A stretch of DNA of 64,000 nt from Yuukianura sp. NJ FZ-2021 (lineage: Eukaryota): assembly GCA_046563655.1 (NCBI GenBank), contig CM102284.1, positions 5,022,001 through 5,086,000 of the forward strand, written 5' to 3'. The notes under the pieces were generated by a model. That model saw only the letters and a program-made list of their open reading frames with translations, was not told where the DNA came from and did no database searches. Every line of letters starts with the position of its first letter. The first letter of the stretch is position 1. Position numbers and translations under genes: made by a program. Below are positions 22,375-55,284 of the stretch, piece by piece.

Positions 22375-23562
22375 ATGTGCAGCACGAATATTCTTAAGCG
22401 CAGACTGACTAAACCAAAGGCTGAGAACCACTGCCCGTCACTTCCTGTACTACTGATTACACTTTGTATTTGGACAACTACTGTTTCTCCAGTTCCAATT
22501 ACAAATACAAATTACTTCAGCATTGACCGACTGAGGTCATTGAGCGAGGTCACGCATCCGCAACCGCCGTACCCTGACTGGTCACCAGTCTGGCAAACTA
22601 CTAAACCAACGTTACGATTCCAGCCAAGGGACATAGTGATTAACAGAGACAAATTATTTAAATCTGCTATTAACACCAGGAAAGACGATCTTGCAGGATG
22701 GAACTGGGATAAGGATCACAGACTGGGCACGGATAATGTGGACATGACTACTTCGTAAGAATTTGCCAAAAATTAAAAAAAGTCTAAATTTTTAAAAACT
22801 TAATATTATTGGATTATCCAGTTTGGCTTGTTTCAACAGAGTTGTGGAAGTCCTTGTGTACATTGTCATTGTACTGGTGATCCTCAGCTTTGTGTCTTTC
22901 GTCGTCTGTATCTGCTGTCCCATTTGCGTATTTGCCAAAATTGGACAAAGGAGACGCGGTCTCCGGTATGTTTATACAAGACGTAAGTCCAAATTGTTTA
23001 TTTGCAGAATTGAAAAATACCAGATTTTTGCCAATTTTCAGTACTCTCAGTTGGAATTTGTTTTACATGTTTTCTTTATTTAGACCGCGGTGTCTCCATT
23101 GCTGGAGCTCCTTCTCCGCCTAATATAAATCCAGCAGCACCCGTACTATCTGCAGCAGCAGCATCTCAAGTAATTGCAGTTCCCAATCCTAGGTCAAATG
23201 CGCCTTACCCAGTTCAGGAAACGGCTACCGTAATTCCAGTGGTTTCGCCGCAGGGAGTACCGAACAATGCAATTAACTGTTCAGAAGTTCGAAATTTTGG
23301 AACTAAGCCACCGCCGTATCTTCCAGGTGACAACTGCATCACTCCAATCAGTGCCAATGGTAAGCTTTTGCAACTTCAAAAATTGCAAATTCCCCAATTT
23401 GCAAAAATGATTTTTTACAAATATCTAGAACTACCACCGCCGTATCCAGGACTTCCGACGTCCCTTGAACCAAATATGCAACAACAACCATACAATCCAT
23501 ACTTCCCGGAACAAAATGGTCCACCGCCACAATCGCCAACTCAACAATACAACAATAAGTGA
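22375..23562 (+). CDS. Shisa-like TM-Cys-PPxY protein A; exons 22375-22754, about 22822-22982, 23084-23359, 23429-23562
   Basis: Signal-like segment, TM VLVYIVIVLVILSFVSFVV, then CICCPIC, RRR, and a Pro-rich tail with PPPYL, PPPYP and QPYNPY. Confidence 0.8.
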
Positions 23563-24131: not shown

Positions 24132-25075
24132 ATGACGGCAGGACTATTTGGACGTACGACAGCATTTATTTTTGCAATATCGCTGGAATGCGTGATCGCC
24201 GGAGACGATATTTACAATGCTGTTGGACTTTCACCAAAAACGGCGGAACAATTTAATGCCAATTCTGGCTCATTCAAAGATTTTGGAGAAACGCATGACA
24301 AGTTCTCCAATGATTTTCAAGAAACGCATGACAAGTTCTCCAAAAATTTTGAAGAAACGCAAGACAAGTAAACAATTGCAAAAAATGTTTGAACGAAACA
24401 ACTTATTGAATTGACTACTACTTTAAATATCTTATTGAAATTTTAGGGTATTCTGGATTATTGGTGGGATCGCGGTTTTTATAGGCTGTAGTTGCTGCAT
24501 TGGCATACTTTGTTGCCTCTTCGTTCCTGCTTGTTTCTGGGCAAAGTCAAGATCTCGAAGACGCCAACAGCAAGGTCAAGTCCCAGGACGTAAGTTTTCA
24601 AATTAAATATAACTTTTGAATTAACTTATAATAATTCTACCCATAATTTAACTTATCGTCAGAACCTGGAACATATGGGAGCGTGACAAATGGGCAACTG
24701 GGTAACCCCATGAACAGTTACAACACAGCGCCACAAGGAAGTTACCCGGGTCAAAATCAGCAACCGGGAAACGCATCAACTGCTGCACCTAGCAACCCTT
24801 ACTACACAACCACCAGCAATCAGCAATTGAATAGTTTTGGAGGGCAGCAACCATTGGCTGCCGGTAACCTCATGCCGAAACAGCCACCATCTCTGTATCC
24901 CTCAGCAGCAAGCGTCGGCAACGCAACGATTAACGTCAGTCCTGAGGGAAATGGACAACCACCGTTTAATCCTTACGTTAGTCCCAACGGAGCAAACGCA
25001 CCACCGCCTGCATCGACATCAGCATACCCAAATGCTGGATACCCCGACAAACCACCGCCTTACCCAGCAATGTAA
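24132..25075 (+). CDS. Shisa-like TM-Cys-PPxY protein B (3 exons)
   Basis: Signal peptide; 11-aa tandem ectodomain repeat; TM VFWIIGGIAVFIGCSCCIGILCCLFVPACFW; RSRRR; P/Q/Y tail with PPFNPY and C-terminal KPPPYPAM. Confidence 0.82.
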
Positions 25076-25555: not shown

Positions 25556-26068
25556 ATGGTGCAAGTAGCGTCCCTTGGCGGCGGAAAGAATTCACAACTG
25601 ACACCAGGTCAAGCAGATGCCATTAATCACATTAACTACGAACTGGATCTTAGTTTTGAGTAAAAAATTAAATCAAATTAATCAAGTACTTAGTTAATTG
25701 GTATTTCTACTAACATTAATTTTGGATTTAATCAACAGAGTCCTTGTGATTTGCTTCATTGGACTCCTTCTGATCATCGTCACTTGTGTCGGAGTTTTTG
25801 TTTGTCGATGCTGTCCAACATGGTTACCTGAGAATGTCCGCAACTTTCGCTCATTCATTTACAAGAGTAAGGCCAATGTCATACTTTAGCGGGTCAATTG
25901 ATCCAAAATTTCGAAAATGGAGACTTTATGTTACACTTTGGCATTTTAGGTGAAGGTACCCAGAGAAAGTTCCCGTTGCGTCAACATCACCGAACGTCCG
26001 ACGACGAATTCTTTTTCCGAAGTTCATTTTCACACTACAATGCTGGTCCCGATTCTTCTGTCATTTGA
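25556..26068 (+). CDS. Small TM-Cys protein C; exons 25556-25659, 25739-about 25867, about 25950-26068
   Basis: Reads MVQVASLGGG...SFE|VLVICFIGLLLIIVTCVGVFVCRCCPTW...|EGTQRK...DSSVI*; junctions in frame; no PPxY. Confidence 0.65.
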
Positions 26069-26466
26069 AACACGCTCATGTCATCCGGATGACCTTTGAC
26101 CTCGCCACTCAAGAATCTCTCATGTTACGTTAGGCTCTCAGTAAGGCTTTGTTTAAATTGCAATTGTGTAAACATTGTGTAAACAAACATTTCGTGAGTA
26201 AAATACAAAATTCAACAGAAGCTATGTCCATCGTTGGGTTTGTGGTTTTCTTTTTCTAAAAACGCAGCGGAAGTAACTGATATGCAAAACAATTTCAGCG
26301 AAAACGAAAACCACAGTTTTAGTTACAAGTAAATTCGTATGTACTAATTTTCGGAAACGTTTGAGGAAAAGTCAATAGCTTTGTATTTTTCACTTTGACT
26401 CCTGCAATTCATTGAATTGGCCACCATCAATCTTATAAAGCAATCTACAACAAAAGGAATCAAACT

Positions 26467-26682
26467 ATGAGGGACTTGGATTACGAAGTTACGTTAATTT
26501 CACTAGGTGTGTGTTTAGTAGTTGCCATCTTTTACTACTTCTGTATCCGACCAAGACAACATCAAGCTGGAACTGTCTTTCAAGTGGCGTCATCAGAACC
26601 AGTTGAAGATTCCAACATAATAAGCACTGCTGGTATGCATAGTAGTACTAGTAGCAATAGCAATCCTGTCCAAAAAGTATGA
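26467..26682 (+). CDS. Small TM microprotein D, paralog of the variable exons at 29.1-30.6 kb
   Basis: MRDLDYEVTLISLGVCLVVAIFYYFCIRPRQHQAGTVFQVA shares the YY-C...R...AGTV-QV pattern with exon 29118-29238. Confidence 0.6.
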   Translation: MRDLDYEVTLISLGVCLVVAIFYYFCIRPRQHQAGTVFQVASSEPVEDSNIISTAGMHSSTSSNSNPVQKV

Positions 26683-26849
26683 AATAAAGTAATTTTCTGT
26701 GCAATTTAGCATACTAACCTGTATAAATTTTCAATTCAAGTGACCCATGCCCTTGTACCCACGCCCACCCACTTCTCTTTCCACATCAACATTTTTATTA
26801 TACTTTCATTACTTTTATTACATTTTCATGACTTTTGGTATGCTGTTAA

Positions 26850-27771
26850 TTAGTTTTGTTGGATGGGGAGTGTGTTGCTGCCGTCGAAATTGCTCATGTT
26901 GTGCGTGAGTGACTGTTCCACAATGTCGTTCATGTCTGGAATGTACATTCTGATGTGAGGCTGCTCAGCAAAACTCACTTCTCGGTGGATCTGGTGTTGG
27001 CGTCGCTTTGGTCGTTCATGTGGTCGCCAAATGTGAGGGAGGGGAGGGGCGAGTGGGGTGGAGGGTGGGGCGGGGGGTTGCGGTGGGTCCAGCACATCAT
27101 CGGCCTCAAACTCACTGCGCATGAGGTGGCGGTAGACCTGGATGGCCTGGGAGTAGTACTTGGCCCTTAGAAGCTGCTGGAGGTTCCAGCAGTCTTTGTA
27201 CGCAACTCCAACCTAAAAACAGGACTTTAGACTGACAATGAGTGAGTGTGAAGGTGAGAGGTCGTACCTCTCGTTTGAGCTTGTCAACTTGTTTGTTGAG
27301 GAGGGGGACTGTGGGGTGCCCTGGGTAGAGGTCAGCCACCATCTCCAGAAAAAGCTCAGTGGGACGGCGGGGCGAGCCACCAGAGCGGTAGGTGGCGTAC
27401 ATCTTCTTGAGTGCGTCTCTGAGAAGGAGCAGAACTCCGTTTCTGTGGAGGAACTGCATGAGCTGAGTCCCTGTCTTGTCCGGAGTGTCACGAGGGTACT
27501 CCGTCAGTCTCTGGAATAAAACAATGAAAGTTCATTTGACCTTTGACCTTGTGAGCGGTGAGGGTGTGTTTACGGGTGGGAGTCCAATGTACTCCGTCCT
27601 GGACTCCTTGATCATCGGTTTGAGCCCCTCCGTGTGGAATCCAGTCGTCACACTGTAGCGCGGAGTGACACGACGCAGATGCCGGAAGTGCGGATGTGCC
27701 TGTGGCGAATCTTGTCCAATCGTGGGGTCGTACACGTAAGTACCGATGTTCTTCGAATCTCCGGACGCCAT
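26850..27771 (-). CDS. 267-aa protein with an MYCBP/AMY-1-like helical domain, Pro-rich linker and RVxF-like motif; exons 27771-27574, 27510-27268, 27212-26850
   Basis: Three exons joined by phase-0 GT-AG introns into one ORF. QFLHRNGVLLLLRDALKKMY...PRRPTELFLE...QVDKLKREV resembles MYCBP as recalled (YLEKSGVLDTLTKVLVALYEEPEKP..ALDF plus coiled coil). REVSFAE lies near the C-terminus. Confidence 0.65.
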
Positions 27772-28392
27772 TTCAAAGGCAGAGAACTCAAACTGTCCCA
27801 AAACGTCAGAAGTGGAAGTTTTTCGTCAAAAACGTTGAGGAAGTCAAAATGTAGTAAGACTGATGATGCATGGATGGATGATGATGCGATGCACCTAAAT
27901 TAGTGGAAGTTGGAGTGGCAACACAACTTTCATTTGTTACAACTAAGTTGTTGGTAACCATGACATTGCAGAGTGTTTTAACAGTAAAAGAATGAAATGG
28001 TGACAGAGTTGTATTGGTTTTCTAATAAAAAAAAAAGCTGAATTTGTAGTAAAAGAAGCTTTTATTTTTTTGAAGATTCTAACTTTAATTTAATGTGGAC
28101 TACATTTATTAAGAAAAGTGTGTGTCCGTAGCACAGAAGTAAGCAACACAACTTATAATGCAGAGCCTTCTACTTGTGGTACATCTCTAAAGTAATTACA
28201 ATTTATTTCTATATAATCCTATATATAATTATAACAATATATATAAAAATAATTCTATAAAAATATAACTCTTTTATTTTGTACATTATTGGTCTGGGTC
28301 GTACATGAGGACAGCACTCGTCATGTCCATTGCCTCCACCACAACCGTCATCCATCACTGTAACATGTAACATGTATGGACACAGTATTTAA

Positions 28393-28621
28393 TGTAATCC
28401 GACCAAAGCGACATCAAGTTGGATTGGAACTGTCGTTCAAGTAAGTGGCGGCATCAGAACCAGTTGCCGCATCCAACATAATAAGCACTGTTCGATTCAT
28501 GATCATGACGGTATTAGCAATCCTGTCCAAAAAGTATGAAATATAATAAATATTTTTGAGCAATTTAGCAAACTAGAACTGTTATTATTTAGTTATATTG
28601 TTCAATTCAAGTGACTCATGC
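28393..28621 (+). pseudogene. 5'-truncated duplicate of gene D (matches 26542-26750)
   Basis: Shared atccgacca..catcaag..ggaactgtc..catcagaaccagttg..tccaacataataagcactg..agcaatcctgtccaaaaagtatgaaata..ttcaattcaagtgac; lacks the ATG and TM segment and carries small insertions. Confidence 0.75.
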
Positions 28622-28887
28622 TTAACATTAGTTTTTAAAAATTATGGGAATCTTGTGTCATGTAATACTAGGACGCCACACGCCAGCATTGTGAGAGTGC
28701 TGATGACGTTTATTGTTTTTGCAAGAATCATTTGCGAAAGGAAGGCGGGGTAAGGAGTAACGTATTTGAGAAAAAAAACACAAACTAACTGGATTGAGAT
28801 TGAGAATGATGACGTAAATGTCATACTCATACTCATACTCACCACCACCATTCAATTCATTTTTAGTATCCTTGAGTTAAATTTAAC

Positions 28888-28939
28888 AAGGAAAGTTGAA
28901 GACACTCCTTTTGTCTTTATCCTTTTCCCATGTGATCTG
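28888..28939 (+). promoter_or_regulatory. Duplicated upstream element, copy 1 (230 nt before the ATG at 29118)
   Basis: The 20-mer aaggaaagttgaagacactc is identical to 29503-29522, and both copies continue into a pyrimidine tract ending gtgatctg. Confidence 0.45.
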
Positions 28940-29117
28940 CTTAGTACATAGTATTTGGTGATTCCGTGTATTTGAATTATCAAAGCATACGATTTTACAA
29001 TTATCAAGAGACACAAACTCATAACCTTTAACAGTTACATCGTTTTCGCCCATCTGATTAAGTTCGAGGAAGATTAAACACGAAGTAGCGGAGTACTTAG
29101 TTTACTAATTAGTGACA

Positions 29118-29238
29118 ATGGGCAAGTTTTCTGGAGCGTTTGTGTCCATTGTGGGAATTGGCATAGTGGCCTTCATTGTTTACTACTGCTGCCTTCGACG
29201 AAAACGTCAACGGGCTGGAACAGTCATTCAAGTTACAA
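29118..29238 (+). CDS. Candidate variable first exon V1 (TM + Cys + basic patch, phase-1 donor)
   Basis: MGKFSGAFVSIVGIGIVAFIVYYCCLRRKRQRAGTVIQVT a|gtaag; 121 nt. Confidence 0.7.
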
Positions 29239-29502
29239 GTAAGTTTAATTAGGAATGCGTTGCGAATGCGAAAAACGATTGGTTGAGAAGAGGTAATCTA
29301 CGGAACATGTTATATACGGAACCCATTGTCTTCAGTGACGACGACTCGTCACTCATTTGAATTTTTCGATTCGTTCCATTGTCGGCATCCATTTTTGTCA
29401 CCAATGTTGCGAAATTTTGTTGAGCATGCCTTCCCGGTAGCGCCCATAAAAGACCATATTTCGGAGTCAATTTTTTGTTATTATCTGGAGATTTTGGCTA
29501 GA

Positions 29503-29552
29503 AAGGAAAGTTGAAGACACTCATTTGCCATTTCTTTTCTCCAGGTGATCTG
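29503..29552 (+). promoter_or_regulatory. Duplicated upstream element, copy 2 (270 nt before the ATG at 29773)
   Basis: Matches 28888-28939, including the identical 20-mer aaggaaagttgaagacactc. Confidence 0.45.
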
Positions 29553-29772
29553 TTTTCTTATAAGAGTTATTCCCAATACCAGAGTTATTGAAGTAAAACC
29601 ATGTTTTCAAGAATTTTAAAACTAGCAAATTCAATTTCTTACTAAGTTAATAATTTCTTACTTAAGTAAGAAATAAACATCTATGTAAGTCAATACGATT
29701 GAAAAATTGAAATCGCGGGGTACTCAACTCCAGCACATTACTACTGGGAGATCAGTGCTTGCTAAGCCGGCT

Positions 29773-29890
29773 ATGGCATTGCTCGAGTTTTATGGAGTGT
29801 TTCTGATGATTTTGTTAATTGGCGCAGCAGCCTGGCTTACTTACTATTCCTGTCTTATTTGCCGGTCTGAACCAGCAATTCAAGGTGCAA
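29773..29890 (+). CDS. Candidate variable first exon V2 (TM + Cys, phase-1 donor)
   Basis: MALLEFYGVFLMILLIGAAAWLTYYSCLICRSEPAIQGA a|gtaag; 118 nt. Confidence 0.65.
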
Positions 29891-30520
29891 GTAAGTTTAG
29901 TTTGATATGATTGAATTCGCCAATTCGAAAGAAAAAATACTGCATAAAGTGCCGGATTGTTTCCCCAATTACCTCTCTTCAATCTCTATCAGTATAATAC
30001 AATACATATTGCATTTAAGATCTAGAAAGCGTAATATAGTGCAAGGTTACACAAAAGGTTAACGGAGGTCATGGACATTGTAAACTTTTCCAGCAAATTA
30101 GCACATGCATCCCAATTTTCAAAATATCTGGTGGTCCTGTTCCAATAGTAAGTTGCCGAAAGGTAGGCTGCAGTTTGGCAGCATAACTGACCATAATGTG
30201 GGTGCATTCAGGAAGACCAACCATGTCGCACGTAACCTAAATGTTAAATTCAGAATTTATAAGTTAGTCACTCATTGATCTTTCACAATAAATCAACACG
30301 GAAAACCGAGTGGATCTAACCAATTCATACGTAGTGGTACTCCGTCATCGCTTTTCATAAGTTATTTCCTCTCCCCAAACCTAGTACTGGAAAGTAAAAA
30401 GACTAGCAAAAACAGATCATCACCTATTTTGTCTAGTCATCATCGCTATCGCTATCCAGGCAGGCATTTCGTCTTTAATCGTCTGATCTGATTTAAATTG
30501 AAAGAACCAACAAGCAGATC

Positions 30521-31249
30521 ATGTCGGACGTACCGGGGGTTGTATTTTTATTAGGAGTTGGATTCCTTATGATGGCTCTAATTGTTTGGGTCTGTTGTTG
30601 TCGCCAAAAACGACGACCTGGAAGAGTTATTCAAGTCGCAAGTAAGCTGAATACTTTAAGATTTTAGGGAAGTGAACGCAAAGCCATTTGTTTCGTATTG
30701 CGCAAACTCACTTCGATTTCTTCCATTTACAAATCGAATTCTACGAAGTTTGTAAGCTAAAATGCTGCCGCAAAATATTAAATGTTGTCAGGTTGATGTG
30801 ATGATCATGATTTGATAATGCTGGACACGAAAGAATCCGGGATGCAGTAATTGATTGATTCTGATTTGTTTCTTACAGCTACCAGAGTACCGCCAGCTAC
30901 CCCAAATGTTATGCCGTATAATCCGAATCCGGTAGGTCAATACGGAGGATACCCACCAGCCGGTACTAATTACGTCGGTAGTCAACAATATCCCGGTCAG
31001 CAGAATATGTCATCTTACCCAATCTATGCTCCGCCTTCTGGTCAACAAATGCCTATGCCTATGCCACCACAAGAAAGTGCTTTACATGTACAAGGAAATG
31101 CTCCCTATCCAATTGGTAATTGCCCACATTTTAATTCCTGTGTTAAGGTCGTACCGAAAACGATTACTAACGATTTACGTTTATGTTTAGCTCCTCAGAT
31201 GCCATATGAAGACTTACCTCCTCCTTACTCGGATGTGACCAAGCGGTAA
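30521..31249 (+). CDS. TM-Cys-PPxY protein: first exon V3 30521-30641 plus tail exons 30879-31115 and 31191-31249
   Basis: MSDVPGVVFLLGVGFLMMALIVWVCCCRQKRRPGRVIQVA a|gtaag joins a phase-1 acceptor; P/Y/Q-rich tail ends EDLPPPYSDVTKR. Confidence 0.82.
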
Positions 31250-31721
31250 CATGTGTACGCTGCAATTGTCTTGCTAAAGTTCGATCGCCATTTTTGCAAT
31301 TTCATAAGGAGAGCTTGATTTGCGGGTCTTTTCGTACCGGAAAGAGTTAAATTTCAAGAAAAAGTTGCAAAAAGGACTTAAGAAAGTTTCCACGCTCATA
31401 AAACGTACTACTTACGCTTACATTATTTAATTAGTACACTTCGTCGTTAGCCTTTAGATGTAAACGTAATTCAAATCTTCCATTTTTATACAAAGCTTCG
31501 TTAGTCTACTAGATTAAGTGTGTAAGATAACTTTAAATGGATCTGACAAGATTTCTTCATGTTTCTTAAGGACGAAGACGAAGCGTCTCTCACCTCACAA
31601 TAAGTCGATAAACACTTGATTTTGCTAAAAATGTTCTACGAAACTTGAAATTTCACTTCTTCAGTCTATTTTATTTTACGTAAAAATATTGTAACACACC
31701 ACTTACCAAATAACAACTTGA

Positions 31722-33279
31722 TTACAGCATTCCATCAACTAAGATTTCATCTTGCGTGACACCTCCGTCCGGTTTGGGATTTGGGATATCATCCAGCGCT
31801 TCTTTGGGAATCGCTGAATTTTCGAGAAATGCTGGTTCAGTCTCGGGCTGCTTAAGATCAATATCCTGTCGATGTGGTGTTCCAGTGCTAATGATTGGAG
31901 GAACTCCTTCGCTGCCTGTTTCGTGATTGGTGGATTCTGGCATCTGTGCGGAAGGCGTATTCGACGGAGCGTCAGTATCCAGTGGCTGCTGGATTTGAGT
32001 TTCGAAACTTTCGTCTGGGATCTCCGTCGCTTTCCAAATTTCACCGCCAGAGTCAGTTCCAAATTCAGTTGCAAGTTGACCTCCATCTTGAGTTTGTTCG
32101 TGTCCGTCATTTGGACCAGCGTCATGAACGTCGTTACTGCGTTCAGCTTCTTTGACCAAATCCAGTATTTGTTCAGTTGGAGTTTCGATTACTGCAGGCG
32201 GGTCGACCCAGTTTCCGATTTCCTCTGACGGATTCATGGATTCACTGGCACCAGCTTCGGCTTGCTCCGACGAAGCGTCTAAGCGATGAAACGATTCTTC
32301 TGCACCTCCTACAGTTTCCTCTGAATGCTTTGAAGCCTCCTCAGTATCAGCTCCAAGTTGGCTTTTTATGTTCGAGCCTTCAGTTTCGTCTACTTGAGCA
32401 TCTTCGGACGGATTCGGAGACTCGGGGGCTGGTGGAGACTCAATGATTGACTCTGTGTCATACCCGTTACCAGCATTATCAACTGCCCAGGACAAGAAAA
32501 ACAAGAGTTCCTTATTCCTTAACCTGTCAAATATAAATTTCACCGAACCTTCTAGGAAATCATGAATAAGTCCCCCAATAGTATCAAACAAGCTCGATAC
32601 TCCGTCGTCTCGCTCCGGAATTTCTTCCAGCACGTCGCCTTTGTCATCTTCCAAATGCTGTCCTCCGGGCGGCCACATTTGATTGACCTCTGGAGCTGCC
32701 ATGGATATTGACACGGGTTCATCATGAACTTCAGCTGAAGAGTCCAATCCAGTATTTTGGTCAATCACTTCCCCTGGACTTGGATTGTCAACCAATAGCA
32801 GTCCAAGTGCAACTCCAAGTACAACCAGCAGTGCAAACAAAAAGATTTTGTAAGTCATGCCTGGACTGGAGTCTGCTGGCTCTTCCCGACTTTCTTCCTC
32901 TTCTTCACTGTTGCTATTGCTATAGTCCAAATCTAAAATAGTCCAAACGAGATTTTCAATTTTAAAAATTTCAAAACCATCCAGATTCATGGTTGCATCA
33001 AACTACGTTTTACCGCTGGCATTCGGTCCTGGGTCGAGGCAGATATGATGCGATTCAGGCACCTCGTCTTGCTCAGCGTCCTCTGATCCGTATAATATTT
33101 TCCCCTCATTCCATTCCTCTTTTCCCAATCGAGCTAGGGAAAAGCAATTAATTACGAATTACGAATTACATTACTACGAACTTAACATTCTATGAAATTA
33201 AACTAAAATGTATTAAATTTTAAGTACCTTTCCGTTTCTTCCTATCCCTTCTACGTCTTGGTTGTACTTCTCCCGACAT
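31722..33279 (-). CDS. ASPH N-terminus-like (humbug/junctate-like) type II membrane protein with acidic luminal domain; exons 33279-33228, 33133-33014, 32932-31722
   Basis: N-terminus MSGEVQPRRRRDRKKRK and TM KIFLFALLVVLGVALGLLLVDN resemble insect Asph N-termini as recalled (MSGDVQPRKRKDKKRK...KIIFFAL...GLII.EN). About 350-aa E/D-rich region; no hydroxylase domain seen. Confidence 0.6.
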
Positions 33280-35219: not shown

Positions 35220-38200
35220 TCACTCTGACGGTTCACTCGTCTAATTCAAAGTAAAAAAAAAGTTGATTAAAACTAACTATTTTGATAATTTAACTTAATT
35301 GCAGAAAGTTGAGTTACACACTTACCTTGACTTCCGTCGATGTAGAAGATGGTTGTACTTGTACATTGGCATCCATCGGGGTTTGGATTATTTCTTTTCC
35401 TGCTCCTTGATCTAAACACAGATTACAATTATATATTACAATTAAATTACACAGAAAACGCAATGTTTCTATTAGGTGTTAGTTTCGGTAAAATACCTGT
35501 GACAGCATGCGTTGTACAGTTCCGGAGCGGATTGGCTTTCTTTGGTGACCTTGACCTTGAAGAATCCGACTCTGAATCACCGGCCAAATCTATTAGTTCA
35601 ATTTCTTCTTCTTCGAAAGCACTGCCAGTGTCTTCGCCCTCCTCTTCCCTGTCTTCGTCAGAACATTCTTCATGTTCATCATATCTGTTTGTACCTTCAG
35701 AGGACTCTGACATTTGAGACGACATGGAATGAGTTGAGTTGGCCCTTGCCGACATATAAGTTGAACTGACGTTGCTCTCGCCACTTTCTTTGTCATAATA
35801 TTCACCTTCACTGGCTCCACTGACATCTTTCTGGGATGAAATCTCGTTAGGAAACTGTTGTTGTTGGGAATCTGGAAAATATGATGCTGGAAGACAATTT
35901 GAAGATACTCCGTCTGACAATAGGTCCATGTCCGAGATCGTATTTACTATTGAAATTTTTGATTTTGAGGGGTAAACGGTGGATTCGTATCCTCCATATT
36001 CTTGTCCAGGAGTTCCAGAATCCTCGTCTTCAACTTCCGCCGCAAGTGGTGAGTTCTCTAACACTTCGTTGGACAGTAGAGAGTTCGCAAGGTCTCCTTC
36101 ACTAGCAGTATCCGTTGAACTATTATTGCTGTTAAGAGAGGTATTGATACCAGTGTGCTTCCTACTAAAATCGTTTCCAGTTTCACTTTCGTGGTTTTGA
36201 GATGAAGGCACAGTGATTTCCGAGGTATTGGAGGTGTTTTGAACTTGAAGTTGATGTGGGTTATTGGCAGACGTTGTTACTGCCGCTGGGTTCAGCTCGG
36301 AAGAAAACTTTGCTGAAGCTGAGAACAGAACGTTATCAACCATTTTAAGTTTATAGAACTAAACAGAATTAAATAACAATTTAAATTGCAATTACCAGCT
36401 GAAGGGACATCTTGACGAATAGATAATTCAGGCCGATTTTGATTCTGAGTAAAAGAAGAATTAAAATCTTTGGTCTGAACTGACGTAGACAATCCAGCTC
36501 CAGACGTGAGTGATGGAGGTAGTCCAGTTGGTTTCGCTGATGCTGAAATCACAGTTGGCATTGTGGCACTGAAAGGCGTCGACACCTTTGACATCTCCGG
36601 TGTTGTATAAGTCACCTTATTACTTGATTGTGATAACGGTGTATTGGCGGTAACGGGTTTTCCAAGCTTCGCGATCGCAAGAGCTTCAAAAAATATTGAA
36701 AATTAAGATCTCACAATTCTAAAGTAAACAACTTTTAGCAACTTCTCCTTACAATTGAGGTGTTTATTGGTTTGGGCTAGTTGAGAAGATGAAGAATTTG
36801 CTACAGCCGTTTGATTCTTCTGGACTTCAAGGATCATCAAATTGCTCTAAAAGTAAAGTTGACGACATTGAAATAGTAATGTTAATTACAATTAATAAAA
36901 ATTTTGAAGTAAATATGGTTTTTTACATTGTTGGCCCTGCGAAGGATCACGGCTTTTCCAGGAGCTCTTACCTAGATTTAAAGTATAAATTAGATTCATT
37001 GTTAAATTGGACTAAAACTTGAAAATGTTTAGAATCATTGTTGAATTTGACTAACAATTCCTCCAGGGGATTGCCCAGCAGGAGTAGATATCACGGGTCC
37101 TGGAAGGACATTTGGAGAGCTTTTTTGAACAAATATGATATTAGCACTTGGAGTTCTTGCACCCGCGGTTGTAGTAGTAGGCGGCAGAGCAGGGACGGCC
37201 TTTTCCGTTCCCACAACAGTCGACGTCGCAGTGGTTAGATTCGGTTTCTGCAGTGTTGAAACTGGAGTCTGGAGCGACGGTAGTGCCGGCACATTCACCC
37301 CTACTGACGTAGCAGTTGTGGGAATCGTAGAATTCAAAGAGGTGGTAGGGGTAAGCGGTGTGGCGGCGTTCCCTTGACTAGAAGTTGGGACGTTGCTAAT
37401 GGCGTTGGCAGAACTTCTATGTAATTTGGATGCGGCAAGTATATGTGGTTGGACTTTTCTTTGGTGAACGCCTGTAACTGGTGAAGGAGGCGCTGGTAGT
37501 GGTTGAAAAAACCTATTGACGGTTGACGACCCTGGTGGAAGAGTACTACTTGGAGCAGATGGAGGTGCTGGCAGTGTGGACTTAATTTCATAGGAATTCG
37601 GTCGTATCCGACCAGCTAGAGAAGATGCTGTGGCAGCCGATGTTGGAATAGTTCCAGGAACGGATGATATTGGTCCCGTACTTTGATTTAGAAGTTGTGA
37701 TGATTGGGTGAAATCTGGATTGGTAGTAGAATTTGACGAGTACGAGTTCGAGTAGTACTCAGGTTGCGGTGTATATGTCGCCGTTGCAGCCAAGTTTTGA
37801 GTTCGTTTCTTAGGAGTTGTGTTATTAGAAATGATTGGGGAATTGAATGATGCTGAGTGTAATGGAAAGTGATGAGGGGATTCATGGTAACCTTTTGAAG
37901 GAGAATTATGGTTTCCTATGATCTTTGAATTGGGAGCAATATTTACTTGTGTCCTTGGAATTCCACCAGGATTGATAATCTTGATTGGCGAACTGGCTGG
38001 AGGAGTGGGATATACAGGAGCTCGCACAATGACAGAACTAAAAGACGACGGAGCAGTAGTGCTGGATGGAATGGAGTATCGAAGATTTGATTCGTTATGG
38101 TCTGAATACACAGCGTTTTTAGGAGTTCCGGGAATTGACTCGTGGGGGTCTTCAATTATAATTGTATGCTTCGTCTTCTGCCGATTTTTAGAAGGAGGTT

Positions 38201-40110
38201 CTAGATATTGATGCTGTGGTATATACGGCGTTCGAGATGTAAAATTCGGAGGAGTGTAGGAGTGCCCTTGACCGTGTCCGTGACGCATTTCAGGATTATA
38301 AGTATCGTAGAATTGATTCTCCCGGTGAAACATCTGATCAACTGGAGAACTATGTTTGCCTTGTATTTGGAATTGAGCTTCATGAGGACTCATCTGTTTC
38401 TGCTGAGTGTCCTTGAGGACGTCGGGTGACGTTTCATTAAAATTTCGGTCCACCGAGAATTGTGTCTGAAAGTTTGTTTTCTTCCGTTTCGTCGTAACAT
38501 TATTCGACTCGTCTCCCTTCGCTTTTGACTTCGGTGTTCGTCTGATTTTCGGTTTTGTCACAATTGCGGGACTTATATCTTCAGACGGAGGTTGAGGGAA
38601 ACCTTCTGGAACTTCGGAAGACAACTGGGTTGTATTTTCGTTGGCTAAACTTAGGCTTGGTCTTCCGCGACCTCTACCTCGACCCCTACCCGCTCCTCTC
38701 GTTGTGGTCTGTGTCCTTCCTCTTACGCGCGACAGCCCTCTCGTTGATCTCGGCGTTGGAATGGGATTTGTTGGAAGTGTAGCATTGTAGGAATTAGGGA
38801 AATCAATTGGAGCGAAACATGATGAAGCTACAGAAACTTCTCTAGCCTGTCGATCATCTTCTGATGTTACATCCGGAACTGATGAAGGTATTTGACCTTT
38901 CCTACCTCCTCGTCCCCTGCCACGTCCTCTTCCTCTGCCAACTGCCTTCTGTACTAAGGCTCGAGCTCTCTGTGCTTTCAGTCTTGCACGCCTCATATCG
39001 TGCCTATTTGTGTGACCAAGCCGAGACTTGAGGTTATTCAGTGATAAACTTTTTCTTGCTGCGGCCGACAACGTGGTAATGTCCGGTGACAGGTCCCTGT
39101 TCACGGCAGAATCTTCTTCCTCCAGATTACTTGCAAACTGCAACTGTGAAAACTCCGTCATTTCCGTTTTAATTTCTGGTTTGATATTTGGAATGAAACA
39201 TTCGTCCTGTTTTAGCAGTTTTGCTGCTTTCAAGATTGGGTCATCCTCAGCAAATCCTGTAGAATTGATGTCCTTTTTCTCGTCCTTGACCTTGACATCT
39301 TCGTCCACAACGCCACATTGTCTGAGTCGCCTTTCCACTATTTGCTCAACAAGTTCTTGTTGAGTAATAATCGGCTTTATCATACATGTCGCAGCAATTG
39401 TTTCACAGTAGCCTTCTTCTATCCATCCCTGTGTCGTCAAATCTCCCGACAACCTATAAAGTGGAACAAGGGGCATTTTGTACTTTTTCCGTGTTAGCTA
39501 ACAGTCGCGAATTTAAATTTGCAAGTTGTTACATACGTGTCAGCGATTACTTCCATCCGTTCATCTGAAGCAACTCGCCTAACTTCGGCTTTGTGTCGAG
39601 ATTCCGGTATGTGGAACCAGTTCCTGATGGACTCGATTATCTTCCGTTTCGGCCCATCCAGTGCCCCAGACATCCTCATAGCACTCATGAATTCACAGTA
39701 AGCGCTCAATTCTGAAAATCAAACACAAGTTAGCACATATTAATTTTGGTTCCTTTTTTAAGTCATCCCATTCAACCTATCAATAGAAATCCTTAAAACA
39801 AACGATTATTCTTTGACATTCTAATCGTCGTAAGAAATGGCTGAGTGGCTGGATGAAACTAAAGAGGTCCGTCATCATCATCCATTCGATTCTGCCCGAT
39901 CATCCTAGTGGTAGGTAGAGACAAAGTACCTACTAAACAGTTCATGCTGCAACCTATTACATTCTCATTCTCAGCAATAAAATTAGAATTGTTTCATTTA
40001 GATTTAGCAAATTAACCAAACCGAACATCACCTTGCGCTCGTAGAAGTCGCTGACATTCAGTACGGAGGTCCTCGCAGAAAATCATTCTTTTTATTTTGT
40101 CGTTCTCCAT
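35220..40110 (-). CDS. EMSY: EMSY-like ENT-domain protein with RG repeats and long S/T/P-rich disordered region (about 9 exons)
   Basis: Spliced ECQRLLRAQ|ELSAYCEFMSAMRMSGALDGPKRKII...HIPESRHKAEVRRVASDERMEVIADT|LSG...W..EG matches the EMSY ENT domain (exons 40110-40032, 39711-39537, 39453 onward). Ends ...TEVK|TSEPSE*. Confidence 0.8.
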
Positions 40111-46131: not shown

Positions 46132-49100
46132 CTAGGTTCCGCTAACGAGTTTGAATCTTCCAAGACCAAGTCCAACTGGATGATGTTGATTGACCATGCT
46201 ACACATGCTTCTGGATTTGGCAGTCACAGGAGGGTATCGCCTAGGATTCGGTTCGGGTTCGTCAATTTGGTCATCCGAAGAGCTCATTGCTGTCAGAAGT
46301 GAAAGCAAATTGGAAGTTGTTGTCTCTGGTTGTCTCTTAGGTCCATGTTTCGACCCAGTTGTCACCTATGAGGCGAAGAAACATAAGGTAATTGCAATTT
46401 GAAGTTTTAATTATTGAAATTAGCTGCACTTAAGCTAACCTTAGCAAAATGTGATCCTTGGCTCTGGAAGGAGTTGACTTCCGGCATGTCCGTGGCCGTT
46501 GACCATTGACTAATGTTGTCCTCCAAGCCAACATGATGCTTTCTCCACACGTCACGAGATCCGCGACTAGTTTGAGGCTTCTGAGCTACCCAAGATTTCT
46601 TTTGAACCCTGAAAAAAGTGAAACAGTTTCGCTAGTTTAAAATTACAGTAATTGGATTCCGGAAAAGCGATTTGCAACAGAAATTTTATGTTAGGTTAAC
46701 GTTAGATTTGTAACTTACATTGGAGAGTTTTCGTAGGACTTGGAAATAATTTCAGCGACTTCCATTCCACCCGAAGACACTTCACCATCTTCAGACAAGT
46801 CGTTGTCCGCGGAGTGGGATTGTACATAAGTTATTCGTTTCTTTATGACCGGAATTGGTTTTGAAACAGGAACATTACCGTACGGACTACCGATACTGGC
46901 AGTACTTCCATTCGTCATTGGAAAAGCATTCGTAGAGTGATTTCGAAACAGAGGATACGCTGTTGCTAACTTATCGTAGCTTCTTGTGGTATCATGCTGA
47001 AGTGGCGGGGCATTGAAGTAGTTAAGGCTGCTGCTGGATCCGGATCCTCTGCTGTGTGTCGGATGTCGCATTTTCTGAAACGAATATTGATAATTCGTCA
47101 TTCTGGATTGATCGGAAGAGTCAACGGAGTCGACGCTACGTTCTCGACATCGTGGACCTGGAACAGCCTCTGTTTCAATTGGTTTGACGCGAACGATTGA
47201 CGGTACAGACGTAAGTCTATTGAACATTTGCACACGATCGTGAAGACTGAGCTTCGACGGTTCAGAAGACGACATTCCATTGGCCGTCAATAAATTCAGT
47301 TTCGTTTTTGGCGTGTTGCGGTGTATCGGCGCAGACTTGAATCGGTCCTTGTCTTCAACGGGACTAAATTGATGCTCAAACTTGTCTGGCAGTTTCAACT
47401 GTGACCTTGGACTTGAAAGTGGGGAAAATGCTTGTCCCTTTACAGGCGAGGGAAGCCCAAGATCATTACCCACCACCGAACGATTCGCTGGTTCAATTTT
47501 GTTATCATTGGTGTCCAAATTCCTCCATTTGCTAAATCGTTGCTTGTGTTCCAGCTTCATAAAGTGTGTCGCCTTTTGTGCAACTGTCATGGACAAAATC
47601 GGTTCCGATTCAGGTTCAGGTGCGATCAGACTCCTCATAACTGGATCAGGCTTGTCTTCAGATTCGCTGTTGGTCAGTGAAGAATTGGACGTGGGATTTG
47701 AAGGATTGACTTTCTCAAAAAATCTTTTCAAAAACGATGGCTGATTTGAAGAAATTCTAGACCAGTATGATGGAAGTGTTCCGGTGGATGGACTTTTCTT
47801 GACTCCTTTACTACTTGTCGCTTCTTCTTCTTTTGCAGTCACTTTTTTCGCTGAATTCCCTGAAGTTTCGCGCATCAAAAGTCGCCTTAGTCCACTCATT
47901 CCTCCAATTGTTGGCGATTCTTTTTCTTTGGGCGGATCGGCTACAGTTGGGGACGACGATGTAATTTTATTGGCTGGTGACGCTCGGGTAACGCCCTCGT
48001 TAGAATGCCGAGGCGGAGATAGTAGTTGACCTCCTTTGACCTATGACATTTCAATTCCAGTTTATTTTTTTGGGCAAAATTGACACTTCTACGTAGGAAG
48101 TTGTCAAGTTGTTTGAAATAGTAAAAAGTTTAATTTAAAATCAAACCTCCGCAATTTTCGTTTTTGTCGACGAAGGAATTTCATTTGAAGTGTCCAAGGA
48201 GCTTTGATTTTGGCGAAGTTGCCAGGATGGCATGCAGTTGCTTGTACTTCCACATCCAGTTTTGACATTATTCCCATTTTTCGGTGTCATTCCACGAGTT
48301 CGGGCAGAAGGAATTGGCGAAAGACCTAAAGTGAAAAATAAACAGTCAAGAAGTAATCATTTTGATTTAAGAGACATATTTGCTCAAATGTCAAAGGTCA
48401 AACGCTTTACCTTTCAAATCGGCGTTGTAACTGATGTGTATTGTTGGAATTTCAATATTTTTATGAAAAATGGGCTTTGTAGCAGCATTAAGTTTCAAAA
48501 ATAAAACTAGGGATTTTGGAGTTAGAGATCTTCAGAATTTTGAATTTTTGTTATTCAGACAGAAACACGACACGCCACTCTCTAAAAACCTAAGGAAAAA
48601 GACAACAACTCAAGGTCAAAGGTCAAATTAATAAAAAGTAAACGTTTTATTAGCCATTTTGGTGCAGCTATCAAGCTATAAGGCCAATCATTCGTGCAAA
48701 AGCGATTTACATTTCTCTAAGAAATCTACATAAACTGAATTGTCTATAACAAAAATGTAGTAATATCAGAATGTCTTTTCATAATTTCTTTTTAATAATT
48801 ATGATTTAAGGTTAACTTTTTAGTGACCAAACGACAAATTTTAATTTTCCTCTAAAACAGAACTACGAATTTGATAGCAATTTTTCATACTTTATGCCTG
48901 TTTGATTTTAATTAGGTATTTTTTTTTCGAAGGTTTAGTACCTGTGATTAAAACTATCTTTTTTTTGGTCGGTGGTTATGGTTGTAAAATTGGGTTTCAA
49001 CTTTTCAAAAAAGAAAAGAGTTTTTTGTGCTTCCACGCGCTAAAAACAGAAATGAATTTTTGAAAATGTAAATCCAGCGATCAACCTCCTGTGAGGATGA

Positions 49101-52100
49101 CAGATACAAATGGATTGAGCTGCTAAAAGATTATGTCAGATCGTGAATCATAAATCTTCTCAAATTTTTCTAAACTGAGGGAATTCAGTTTATTTTTAGT
49201 TTTCAAATCCCAAAGTGCTTTTTCATTTACCCAAAGCAGCATTGCGCGTGTGCGGTGCCTGCGGTTTTGTGTGCAGCGGTGCGCAGGATTCATGAAAAGC
49301 TTGTAGCAACGAACACAAACACAGCCAAAATAATTCCAAAAATAGGAATTAGCTCAAAATGGGTGACAACGGTTTGGATCAAAGCGAGGCAGTAGCATGC
49401 AACGACCAACAGCTCACTCCAACAACAGCCAATGGCTAAAGCTGATGTCGTAGGCTCACCTTGGGATGGTCCTTTGTTCTTAAGGATTCCGCGGGGGTGC
49501 CCTTGAGACGAGCCCTTGGTGTCCATTCCGCTGGGACCGGTCGGAGGTGGTTCAGAAGTAGCTTTTTTCCAAACTCTGGGCGCTGATTGGTCAGAAGTTT
49601 GGGGATCCACGGCTTCCGCTTCAACGTCAATGTGTTTCTCCTGTTCCAAACCGGAAGCGACTTCAGTTTCGTCAGATTTTTTCGGATCTGTCCGCCTCCA
49701 TGATTTGGCAGAATCTGCTGGCGGAGTGACCGGAGTTGGCGATTCCAGCTCGGCAATGGCTGCTTGCCACTTTGTCTCCTTCTGGGATGGTCTGGACGGT
49801 CGCTTTTTACGAACTTGCGGAATCGGCTCATTGGTGGAAACGCCTGGAGCAGAAACGTCGTCGTCACCGCAATTATCTGCGTCTTTTACAAGTGCATCGA
49901 TTAAATCATTCAGTTCTTGCTCACTCTGAGACGGATGTTCTGGAACTGATCCACCTCCAGAAAATCCTTCCAAACTGATTTGTCTGATTCTACGCGGAGT
50001 TGGCAGAGGATGGAAGACCATAGGCTTAGAATTTCCAGCTATCGCTTCATGAGCACGTTGAAGCGAATCGAATTGTTTGGGAACTTCAGACCAACTCCGT
50101 CGTTTTGGTCCTTCAGTCTGACTCGGCCCGAGACTAGATGACCTTGGATCGGCGTAACTTCCTGGTCGTTGATTTTGCCCTGGCGGGAGCCCAAATGTAG
50201 CAAAATAGTCATCAATTTCTGCCAGATGAAGTGGAGCTTGTGCTTTTAGTTCGTCGATTGGTGGAGAATTAGATGGTGTTGTCGGCAGAGCGTCAACAAA
50301 AACGTCATTGTCTTCTTCTGACACTGGGGTTCTAACAGCAGCCACAGGGTCAACTTTAGCCTGTTTTGGTTCATCATGGTCTTCAAAACTTTGCAGAATT
50401 AGGTCAGTCCAAGGTCGTCTAGGAGCGTTCGGATCTACTGGAGGTGGGGCAGGCTTTACCGGCGGTTTCAGCAGCTTGAACTTCTTTTTGATGGTGGATT
50501 GGGGTGAAGGTGGACGGTAAACAGTGTCCGGAGCTCCATATTCCTCCAGGTTTGCCTGCTCAACCCAACTGGCTTGACGGAAGCTTGATCTCGACGGGGT
50601 CAGTGACCTTGAAGATCGTTGACCTTGCCCAGCTAGATCGCTGTAGGAATTCCACTTGCCAATTTCTTGTCTGAGAGATGAAGAGGGATTTGGAGGATTG
50701 ACGATATGCGAAATGTTGGCTGAAAGGGATCGAACAGCTCTCAGTTTCTTGTTTCCAGCGCCAGCGTTCAAGTCCGGTTGAATGTTGTAGTTGAATACAG
50801 AATCGCTGCTGCCGTTTCCGGGTGTCTGTTGAGGACTAAACAGCCTTGGTGTCCAATTTCTGTTCAAATTATTTTCTTGACTCAAATCTTTCCGCAAATT
50901 TCGAAACGCTTGATCGTCCTTGACAATATCAGGATTCTTGACATGGCGGAATAATGGTCGAAACTTTTCTTTGGGCGTGGCATGAAGGTAGTCACTCGGA
51001 GGAGCTTTTGTGATTGGTCCCAGGGGAACGCCAAAAAGTGGTTGCGGCTCTTCAATAATTCGAATCGCATTGGCGTCTCGAATACTCCGGACTGCGACGT
51101 CGTCAACAACAACGTCTGGTTCGATTCGTTTCCGACTACTGTAAGGGCTTGGAGACGGAGGCGGTTGTTCTTCTGGACATGGCGACACTGGAGGAGAAAA
51201 AGCTGGTGAAAAAGCCAAGTAGGATCCAGTTTGGCCCATGACTTCCCTTGTATCCGTGACCTTTGAACTTTCTCTAGAATCGTATTTCCGCTTGGCCATA
51301 TCGTCATTGACCCGGTCTGGAACACCTGAAATAACGTATACCTCAACTTTAAATGAAAATCTTATAAATTGTATAAAAATAAACAAAATGTATAAAAATG
51401 ATTTTTTTTTAAATTTAAATTTTTTTAAGATTGTTTGAAATTCTGGTTTCAAAACAATTGTAATTTGAATTTTTGACAAATTGTTCATAAATTTCTGCGA
51501 AAATTGCGGAAAAAAAGGGGGAGTGGCCTACGATATATCTCAAAATTCAAAAATTCACGTCCACCAAGTCCAGAGACCACGTTCCAGAGTTCCGCTCCGA
51601 AACGAAACAGCAAAAAACACACTAAACCGAATTTTAACATAAAGGAAAGAGAAAGACATTCCGGGAAACGAAAGTAAGAGTAAAAGAGTAAGTTAAGTTA
51701 CCTTAAATTAGAAATTATTAGTTAAACTAAAATTAATCGTTTCTAATCCAGACTTTCTCGGGAAACAGGCAAACGACAAGCGATGGAAGTGGAAGTCGCA
51801 CAGACACAAGTGATTGAAAGTGAACAGGATAAGAATAAGGACTCAGCAGCACCAGTGTCAAGGTCACCTGCTACTGCACCAAAAACCGAGGAGGTAAGAT
51901 AAGAATGTGAGTAATTAGCAATTGAAATTAATACTTTAATTGGGTGACATGACCAGTCGATTTGTTAAAAGTAACAAGCTTGTGCTGTCTATAGTCATTC
52001 AAAGCGTCGTGTAGTATTCTGATTTCTGATTGATGTACTGTCAACTCTGAGGGGAAATCTCATTCGAAAACTTAGGAATATTTTTATGAATGTATAAAAT

Positions 52101-55100: not shown

Positions 55101-55284
55101 CATCTTGGATGTCCGCGGGTGATGCTTCAACGTGATGCTGCTGATTTCGCCAATGAAGGCCAGCTTGGTTCTCAGCCGACGGAGATCGGTGAAACGGTAC
55201 AAAATTTCGGTTTGACGTAGGCGACGTAGGTGTTGCACTACCAGGCCAGTAAAGATCAGCAAGGCGTTCCGGTGGTTCAGAAGT
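46132..55284 (-). CDS. Very large (>2000 aa) low-complexity protein, 5' end not located; exons 55284-52581, 51325-49460, 48325-48147, 48040-46719, 46608-46440, 46365-46132
   Basis: All six exons join in frame through GT-AG introns. Conserved-looking islands: LEDALNELEDMYKSLRLSDEDLLDRAERRD, RRSG|VPDRVNDDMAKR, PDIVKDDQAFRNLRKD, LSMTVAQKATHF, KLSLHDRVQMFNRL. Confidence 0.8.
51783..52415 (+). CDS. Small nested antisense gene encoding a 121-aa basic coiled-coil protein; exons 51783-51893, 52161-52415
   Basis: ATG exon with donor gag|gtaaga and acceptor tttgtag|aac join in phase 0; K/R/E-rich helix; lies wholly inside intron 52580-51326 of the - strand gene. Confidence 0.55.

Follow-up and report, generated by a model that had tools for sequence, protein, structure and literature searches.

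A 64-kb stretch of the genome of Yuukianura sp. NJ FZ-2021 (contig CM102284.1, forward strand; hereinafter the window, i.e. the whole of the DNA analyzed) carries three tandem paralogous 5' coding exons, V1, V2 and V3, that precede shared constant exons and are phase-compatible with them. The constant exons encode a tail with a PPxY (PY) motif, and the reading that we favor with moderate confidence, judging from the sequence, is that V1, V2 and V3 are alternative 5' coding exons on this one tail. Such a gene probably encodes two or three proteins that share the tail and differ in the membrane anchor. V1 and V3 are likely members of this cassette, and V2 is a candidate member; we consider it somewhat probable that at least two of the V exons are used and slightly doubtful that all three are.

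The V exons and the constant tail

All three V exons are located on the plus strand. V1 (29118-29238, 121 nt) is a first coding exon of the ancestral type, with an M-G-K-x-S-G start, a helix, a CC pair, a basic patch and the end I-Q-V-T, and is followed by the donor CAA/GTAAGT (the slash marks the exon boundary). V2 (29773-29890, 118 nt), a diverged copy of the V1 unit, encodes a helix and two Cys residues without a basic patch, ends in I-Q-G-A and has the same donor. V3 (30521-30641, 121 nt), a diverged first coding exon that adjoins the tail, combines a helix with CCC, a basic patch and the end I-Q-V-A, followed by CAA/GTAAGC. Each exon starts with ATG and extends to CAA/GTAAG with a single extra base (phase 1). 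An earlier note on this DNA, made from its letters alone, had described three ATG exons with a transmembrane helix and a Cys patch, a basic patch in V1 and V3 but not in V2, and a common IQ(V/G)(T/A) end at a phase-1 donor; the 19-residue Kyte-Doolittle means of the helices (2.46, 2.18 and 2.77 for V1, V2 and V3, respectively), the translations and the donors bear out this description. At most eight residues, none of them Cys, precede the helix in each exon, the Cys residues are located at its inner end, and in V1 and V3 the basic run comes next. Past the donor, the three frames stop after 4 to 8 codons (4 in the case of V1). Joined to the tail, the V exons give predicted products of 137 or 138 residues, in which neither a signal peptide nor an ectodomain rich in Cys and of the C*C*CC*CC pattern was found.

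The similarity among the V exons goes beyond chance. A scan of both strands of the 64 kb for an ATG followed by an early hydrophobic helix and a GTRAG donor gave three hits, all of which are V1, V2 and V3. Their donor regions form a three-copy repeat family (47 nt, 70-77% identity), and when alignments were scored against shuffled sequences, the V1 exon matched V2 with z 14.8 and V3 with z 10.4. The flanks of V3, compared with those of V1, gave z -0.5 and 0.3, i.e. the similarity between these two units is restricted to the exon; the exon and flank comparisons covered V1 with V2 and V1 with V3 (six of nine). V1 and V2 share their upstream flank as well (72% identity across 217 aligned bases, z 15.2). 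Here blastn pairs 28852-28942 in the V1 unit with 29467-29555 in the V2 unit at 74%, and the plus-strand cores of these two elements, 28888-28911 and 29503-29526, are direct repeats with 96% identity, including 18 nt that are identical at 28890 and 29505 and would be expected 0.17 times allowing up to 3 mismatches. This element, which had been recognized previously as common to V1 and V2, is the best-preserved piece of a duplicated flank of roughly 270 nt. In the V1 unit it is a candidate promoter, 5' untranslated region or splice element; the V2 copy contains an acceptor-like site, after which an exon would begin at 29545.

V3 is separated from the tail by a plus-strand intron of 237 nt (30642-30878), the donor and the acceptor of which are both read in the sequence; the introns that connect V1 or V2 to the tail would span 29239 or 29891 to 30878. 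The acceptor at 30879, ttctgatttgtttcttacag/CT, keeps the frame with V1, V2 and V3 and contains 11 pyrimidines in 15 positions, compared with 8-12 of 15 in the seven other acceptors inferred in the window. The first constant exon (30879-31115, plus strand), which is rich in P, Y, Q and G and starts at this phase-1 acceptor, aligns both to residues 40-155 of P0001, a protein of 155 amino acids (aa) of metagenome source that was found with the window tail as the query (E 2e-8; one hit from two candidates), and to the tail exon of L001, a 2873-nt genomic contig recovered in a metagenome scan. It is followed on the same strand by a second tail intron (31116-31190, 75 nt), which is in frame and stop-free, is absent from P0001 and has a counterpart in L001 at the equal place, and then by the second constant exon (31191-31249), with LPPPY at 31214-31228 and the stop codon at 31247-31249. 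P0001 and L001, when aligned with the window, support the removal of 31116-31190; with this intron removed, the protein runs six residues beyond LPPPY, and does not end with this motif as the earlier note had it. The last 11 residues of the tail are identical to those of P0001 and show one difference from L001. Retention of the second tail intron would add 25 residues ahead of the PY motif; given that its counterpart in L001 contains a stop, the open frame in the window intron is probably due to chance.

The PY motif has the [L/P]PxY form throughout, being kept as LPPPY in the window, L001 and P0001 and as PPSY in P0005, a more distant homolog described below. From the five basic residues that follow the helix, we infer that it is located on the cytosolic side. 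A tblastn search of the 64-kb window with the tail peptides detected no second tail (the self-match only, the next best match being at E 0.50) and no relic tails downstream of V1 or V2, in agreement with the single P/Y-rich tail noted before. Enrichment of the TTCAATTCA motif was considered and rejected: the motif occurs 5 times where 2.8 are expected, a count that was reached in 15 of 100 shuffles.

Relatives, selection and exon choice

The first 41 residues of P0001 correspond to a V1-type exon, with 71% identity to V1, and run into the tail with both introns absent, a layout that fits an mRNA-derived contig. The metagenome scan gave six loci, among which only L001 covers the whole protein; the other five (L002-L006) matched over just 17-28 low-complexity residues and were dropped. 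L001 consists of a V1-type exon (298-424), a 105-nt phase-1 intron, a tail exon (530-808), a second intron and a last exon that closes with the same motif as in the window, and the intron positions and phase agree between the two. The downstream neighbor in L001, on the opposite strand, matches the window gene at 31722-33002, and therefore synteny between L001 and the window holds. This neighbor gene (minus strand; about 1450-2710 in L001) encodes an acidic, low-complexity protein with one helix and no Pfam match.

A profile-free search with P0001 over 1.84 billion representatives returned seven proteins at E up to 0.001, P0001 itself included. P0002, which comes from L001, and P0003, from another relative, are tail frames on genomic contigs. 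P0005 (159 aa) is a distant full-length homolog with the same layout and the PPSY motif, and P0007 (277 aa), in which a signal peptide and a Cys/Tyr-rich ectodomain come together with a CC-bearing helix, a basic run and a PPPY tail, matches over the helix and the tail (E 7e-5). P0004 and P0006 were set aside as repeat or low-complexity matches, of which P0006 was judged on its sequence. With P0001 as the homolog query, two of 41 candidates were hits. A viral scan yielded no matching locus, and the four Actinomycetota matches from a scan of prokaryote genomes were of low complexity and were dropped. The M-G-K-x-S-G start is kept in V1, L001, P0001 and P0005, and is missing from V2, V3 and the further V-like exon D discussed below. 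In these sequences, a V1-type exon followed by the tail is the normal product of the family, and V1 is the ancestral exon type. The start itself (29118-29135 in the window, 298-315 in L001) resembles an N-myristoylation start; such a start would be at odds with an N-out protein, which is the topology that the basic patch following the helix implies.

Selection was assessed by the ratio of the proportions of nonsynonymous and synonymous differences (pN/pS) from Nei-Gojobori counts, with 95% bootstrap intervals. The comparison of V1 with exon 1 of L001 gives pN 0.16 and pS 0.70 (ratio 0.23, interval 0.11-0.39), and that of the window and L001 tails gives pN 0.30 and pS 0.72 (ratio 0.41). The former ratio points to purifying selection on V1, which is to be regarded as a working exon; given that V1 runs into a stop four codons past its donor and that the window contains a single tail, V1 most likely uses that tail. 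Between V1 and V3, pN is 0.33 and pS 0.64 (ratio 0.52, interval 0.33-0.80), and the differences from V1 are distributed over the three codon positions as 13, 12 and 23, with an excess at the third position, at 59% nucleotide identity of the exons. V3 is thus constrained as well, and the constraint on both V1 and V3 is hard to explain unless each of them joins the only tail in the window. A single product of V3 and the tail, with V1 and V2 being dead or silent duplicates, would be compatible with the position of V3 as the nearest exon, 237 nt from the tail and with clean signals, whereas V1 would have to skip six acceptor-like sites and a 1640-nt intron. However, V1 is the exon best conserved in comparison with the relatives (ratio 0.23; 71% identity to P0001), despite a pS of 0.70 that is near saturation, and we consider an arrangement in which only V3 works very improbable.

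Acceptor-like sites were defined as YAG with at least 10 pyrimidines in 15 positions. Read in phase 1, all six such sites from the V1 donor to 30879 lead to a stop within 1 to 35 codons. The same range applies to each of the five sites between V2 and 30879, so that the earlier observation of stops after the acceptors that follow V2 holds in five cases of five; the longest open frame after any AG past V2 is 43 codons. The phase-1 frame from the 30879 acceptor is open for 123 codons. Because each V exon has its own ATG and a phase-1 donor, and no convincing in-frame acceptor is available, a transcript would join the tail at 30879 from whichever V exon it begins with or selects.

V1 and/or V2 might instead be separate small genes that encode helix-only micro-proteins of about 44-45 residues, made from RNA left unspliced, or use local 3' exons (29336, 29545). 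The read-through frames that stop after 4 to 8 codons are compatible with this possibility, as are the open frame that follows the 29336 acceptor (59 further codons after V1) and the nearby paralog D, which has no donor and a short end of its own. The 29336 site, however, falls short of the 10/15-pyrimidine threshold, the 29287-29511 and opposite-strand frames match no Pfam model and are not P/Y-rich, a V1-type exon carries the PY tail in three relatives, and none of the V exons has lost the phase-1 donor; separate genes are therefore, in our estimate, quite unlikely. The interval between V1 and V2 contains two frames over the same 250 nt, 29287-29514 on the plus strand (75 codons) and 29249-29497 on the minus strand (82 codons); the former is the one reached from V1 via the weak 29336 acceptor, and neither strand's frame matches Pfam.

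AG dinucleotides are located 3 to 12 nt upstream of each V ATG, and in L001 a pyrimidine-rich ...ccaccttag is found 8 nt before the ATG, so that splicing from a shared leader is as conceivable as promoter choice. The V exons might be mutually exclusive internal exons spliced from one non-coding leader, with the same products; besides these AGs, acceptor-like sites upstream of V2 (29545) and V3 (30385, 30437, 30460) speak for this arrangement, and joint inclusion of two V exons breaks the frame, as it does in arrays policed by mRNA decay. On the other hand, no leader exon was identified, the V1 copy of the upstream element lacks the AG present in that of V2, the sequence just before the V3 ATG is purine-rich, and no inverted repeat of the docking/selector type involves the shared element. 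We regard a shared leader as a tentative, somewhat unlikely alternative. Unlikely, too, is the full version of promoter choice, whereby each V exon would be expressed from its own promoter, in different cells or conditions, and the swapped helix and juxtamembrane segment, with the conserved Gly in the middle of the helix, would decide the membrane clients or the compartment for a constant Nedd4-docking tail. The other inverted repeats, around 30798-30817, are due to a palindromic core, and an Rfam search of 26000-32000 found nothing at E up to 1.

Several observations weigh against three alternative exons on one tail. The strongest-looking acceptor of the interval is the 29545 site (13 of 15 pyrimidines, CAG/G) between V1 and V2. 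V1 joined to it would gain 15 Tyr/Ser/Gln-rich codons and then a premature stop, and as read from its signals, this site is a real competitor to V1-to-tail splicing; it falls inside the V2 copy of the shared element, and the V1 copy has no AG there. The V1-to-tail intron would be 1640 nt long, compared with 70-240 nt for the introns inferred in the window. The contiguous frame of P0001 could stem from an intronless copy rather than from mRNA. No V3-type protein was found elsewhere in a search with the V3 exon for longer proteins (no hits among nine candidates), and in L001, which covers 297 nt upstream, exon 1 is followed by the tail without a further V exon in between; with a single V exon and that upstream extent in L001, the array is unconfirmed outside the Yuukianura genome. 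The remaining points concern V2, which has lost the basic patch and which, compared with V1, shows pN 0.36 and pS 0.38 (ratio 0.94, interval 0.54-1.98), i.e. about the neutral amino-acid rate. Its 14, 15 and 11 differences from V1 at the three codon positions imply that residues change about as fast as silent sites, and at 67% identity to V1 (64% in another alignment) the V2 exon is no better preserved than the 5' flank (72%).

Some observations favor a gene in which, as in the relatives, only V1 and the tail work, with V2 and V3 decaying inside what would now be a long first intron: V1 is the conserved type, V2 evolves near the neutral rate without the basic patch, L001 has a single exon before the tail, and a V3-type protein was not met among the nine candidates. 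The evidence from V3 argues otherwise, with its pN/pS of 0.52 (0.33-0.80), the third-position excess, and an exon that aligns between flanks diverged beyond recognition. Moreover, V2 and V3 keep the ATG, frame, helix, Cys residues and GTAAG donor, and one would expect selection to remove live donors from an intron. In V2 in particular, the frame has stayed open, and the hydrophobic helix, two Cys and the full GTAAGT donor are retained. Its exon has one internal gap of 9 nt (or +6 and -9 in another alignment), compared with 17 gaps of mixed length over the 217 aligned bases of its equally old 5' flank; by a Poisson estimate, about 9 gaps are expected in the exon at the flank density, and P(<=2) is below 0.01. 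In a neutral substitution simulation started from V1 (40000 runs each, uniform rates), the ATG, the open frame and the GT survive together in 2.4% of the runs at the divergence of V2 and in 1.5% at that of V3, and all scored features survive in 0.02% and 0.0025%, respectively, figures that are guides rather than tests because the features were picked post hoc and the rates were assumed to be uniform. Altogether, a V1-only gene seems to us clearly unlikely. The earlier proposal of variable exons on a constant tail holds up best for V1 and V3, both of which are constrained, with the V1-type exon joined to the tail in a relative, and is weaker for V2; the comparison with related species that had been suggested along with it agrees in the pN/pS of V1 against L001 (0.23) and in the syntenic neighbor, and leaves the array itself unconfirmed, L001 lacking an extra V exon before the tail.

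If, as we favor, alternative V exons are spliced to the common tail, the ligase-docking tail would be common to the products, with the helix and the juxtamembrane segment varying from one to another. The predicted protein has a very short outside end, one helix with a mid-helix Gly, juxtamembrane Cys residues, a basic stop-transfer patch, and a cytosolic tail, about 95 residues long, that is disordered and rich in P, Y and Q and has LPPPY near the end. The positive-inside rule would give it an N-out/C-in topology. By what is generally known of such proteins, the Cys residues may be palmitoylated and LPPPY may be a docking site for WW domains of the Nedd4 family, and the helix might set the partner or the compartment.

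Duplication history and neighboring genes

A two-step history can be proposed because V2 shares the flank of V1 while V3 shares the exon only. An older tandem duplication of the first-exon segment would have given rise to V3, and a subsequent duplication of the V1 unit together with its 5' flank to V2; the copies would have diverged, with V1 remaining near the ancestral sequence.

The V-like exon D (26467-26682, plus strand), the fourth of its kind, is located 2.4 kb upstream of V1, has 36% aa identity to V1 and has no GTAAG donor. Its frame reads on into a short Ser-rich end of its own, with 71 residues in all, and residues 10-43 of P0001 match it at E 0.023. A region of minus-strand open reading frames separates D from V1, and D is probably not part of the cassette; it might be a relic or a micro-gene in its own right. 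A stretch of about 60 nt that follows D (26690-26750) recurs before V1 (28561-28621), with a core identical in 20 of 21 positions, and these repeats bracket a 1.8-kb segment with minus-strand frames (26850-28021). Without this segment, D would be about 780 nt from V1, which is close to the spacing of the V units. The bracketing repeats and the spacing suggest that an older array of four units was interrupted by an insertion.

The GT-AG introns of this eukaryotic region measure about 70 to 240 nt. Upstream of D, three small single-pass genes are arranged in tandem on the plus strand. Gene A (22375-23562) consists of three exons and encodes a helix that contains Cys, with PPPY at 23308 and 23434; gene B (24132-25075), also with three exons, encodes a Cys-rich helix and a tail ending in P-P-P-Y-P-A-M, and has the same phase-1 junction after the basic run as the cassette; gene C (25557-26070) encodes a helix and no PY motif. 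None of the three has a Pfam match, and the region from 22 to 31 kb can be described as a nest of PY-tail membrane genes. Elsewhere in the window, there are long frames at 6747-8027, 37035-39497, 46715-48040, 49290-51527 and 52570-55284 (426-904 codons) with low-complexity, Ser/Pro/Gln-rich products, four of which (37035-39497 excepted) had no Pfam match at E up to 0.001.

Protein kind and known systems

No Pfam cut-off was reached by nine window stretches and four database proteins, including P0001, P0005 and P0007, nor by the neighboring genes, the intervening frames and the long open reading frames of the window; the best match was that of CYYR1 to the V3 helix (13.6 bits against a cut-off of 31, E 0.094). 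Language-model look-alikes, which are leads rather than tests, are arthropod clusters named shisa-5-like (0.93, 192/256 features), a cluster with 40% of its members Shisa5_N (0.90) and VOPP1 (0.75) for P0001, and shisa-4/5-like, CYYR1 and WBP1-like proteins (0.88-0.89) for P0007. The sequences define a small animal protein family without a curated model, characterized by an M-G-K-x-S-G start, a helix, CC, a basic patch and a PY tail.

PY-motif adaptors, such as Ndfip, Comm, PRRG4, CYYR1 and the Shisa-like proteins, decide the targets of Nedd4-family ligases, and how the clients are chosen is poorly understood. If the reading of alternative V exons on one tail is true, a constant docking tail with a swapped helix module of about 40 residues would isolate the contribution of the membrane helix, in a clean three-way comparison inside one organism. 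The locus would also be a compact example of tandem duplication of a first exon leading to isoform diversity, with V1 frozen and the other copies free to diverge. Should each V exon also have its own promoter, this would be a minimal, ectodomain-free diversified ubiquitin-ligase adaptor, organized as a three-unit cluster in the style of protocadherins; if V2 and V3 are silent, the locus is an ordinary lineage-specific duplication.

Among PY adaptors, the closest resemblance in kind is to the Shisa-like proteins. The STMC6 group (Shisa, CYYR1, WBP1/WBP1L, VOPP1, TMEM92) is described as consisting of short single-pass proteins with a Cys-rich ectodomain, Cys in or adjoining the helix and a Pro-rich tail with PPxY, with roles in trafficking and degradation (PMC5578492), and CYYR1 is described as binding WWP1 and WWP2 via PPxY (PMC11399591). 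The single helix, its Cys residues and the tail are found here as well. Unlike these proteins, the predicted products have no signal peptide, no Cys-rich ectodomain and an outside end of at most eight residues, and the curated models Shisa_N, CYYR1, WBP-1 and VOPP1 were not reached. By analogy, the protein is best described as one that might work like the Shisa-like or CYYR1-type PY adaptors without being a member of the group. Helix-swapping isoforms of Shisa-like proteins were not found in open-access text.

Commissureless and PRRG4 are described as short proteins without a signal peptide that use PY motifs and Nedd4-family ligases to sort a client receptor (PMC5578492; PMC12101832). Comm differs from the protein discussed here in its long luminal part and its LPSY-type motifs, and no similarity between the two was detected. 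Comm is not known to have an exon array. Among PY proteins with N-terminal isoforms, PMEPA1 seems by analogy to be the nearest: PMEPA1/TMEPAI is described as a type Ib protein (N-out, no signal peptide) with a PPPY/PPTY tail and N-terminal isoforms (PMC7565192). In contrast to PMEPA1, where the luminal end varies and the helix is kept, here the helix itself would be exchanged, and no relationship at the Pfam level was found.

With respect to exon organization, UGT1A is a variable 5' exon cluster on shared exons. Tandem 5' exon arrays on shared downstream exons are also described for sDscam of chelicerates and for Pcdh (PMC4835542). As in clustered protocadherins, UGT1A and sDscam, paralogous 5' coding exons with their own starts precede shared exons here, an organization known in this case from the sequence; in contrast to those systems, there are three units of about 120 coding nt, and the variable part is a bare helix with its juxtamembrane segment, not an ectodomain. 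In Dscam1, the exon 17 swap alters the placement of the protein in the cell while the rest of the receptor remains constant. This exon is described as being represented by two alternative membrane-segment exons (PMC2566808). Unlike exon 17, which is internal, mutually exclusive and part of a large receptor, the V exons would be the first coding exons of a 138-residue adaptor. No description of helix-swapping first exons on a PY tail was found in open-access text; the architecture combines two kinds that are each known, variable 5' exon arrays and PY-tail membrane adaptors.

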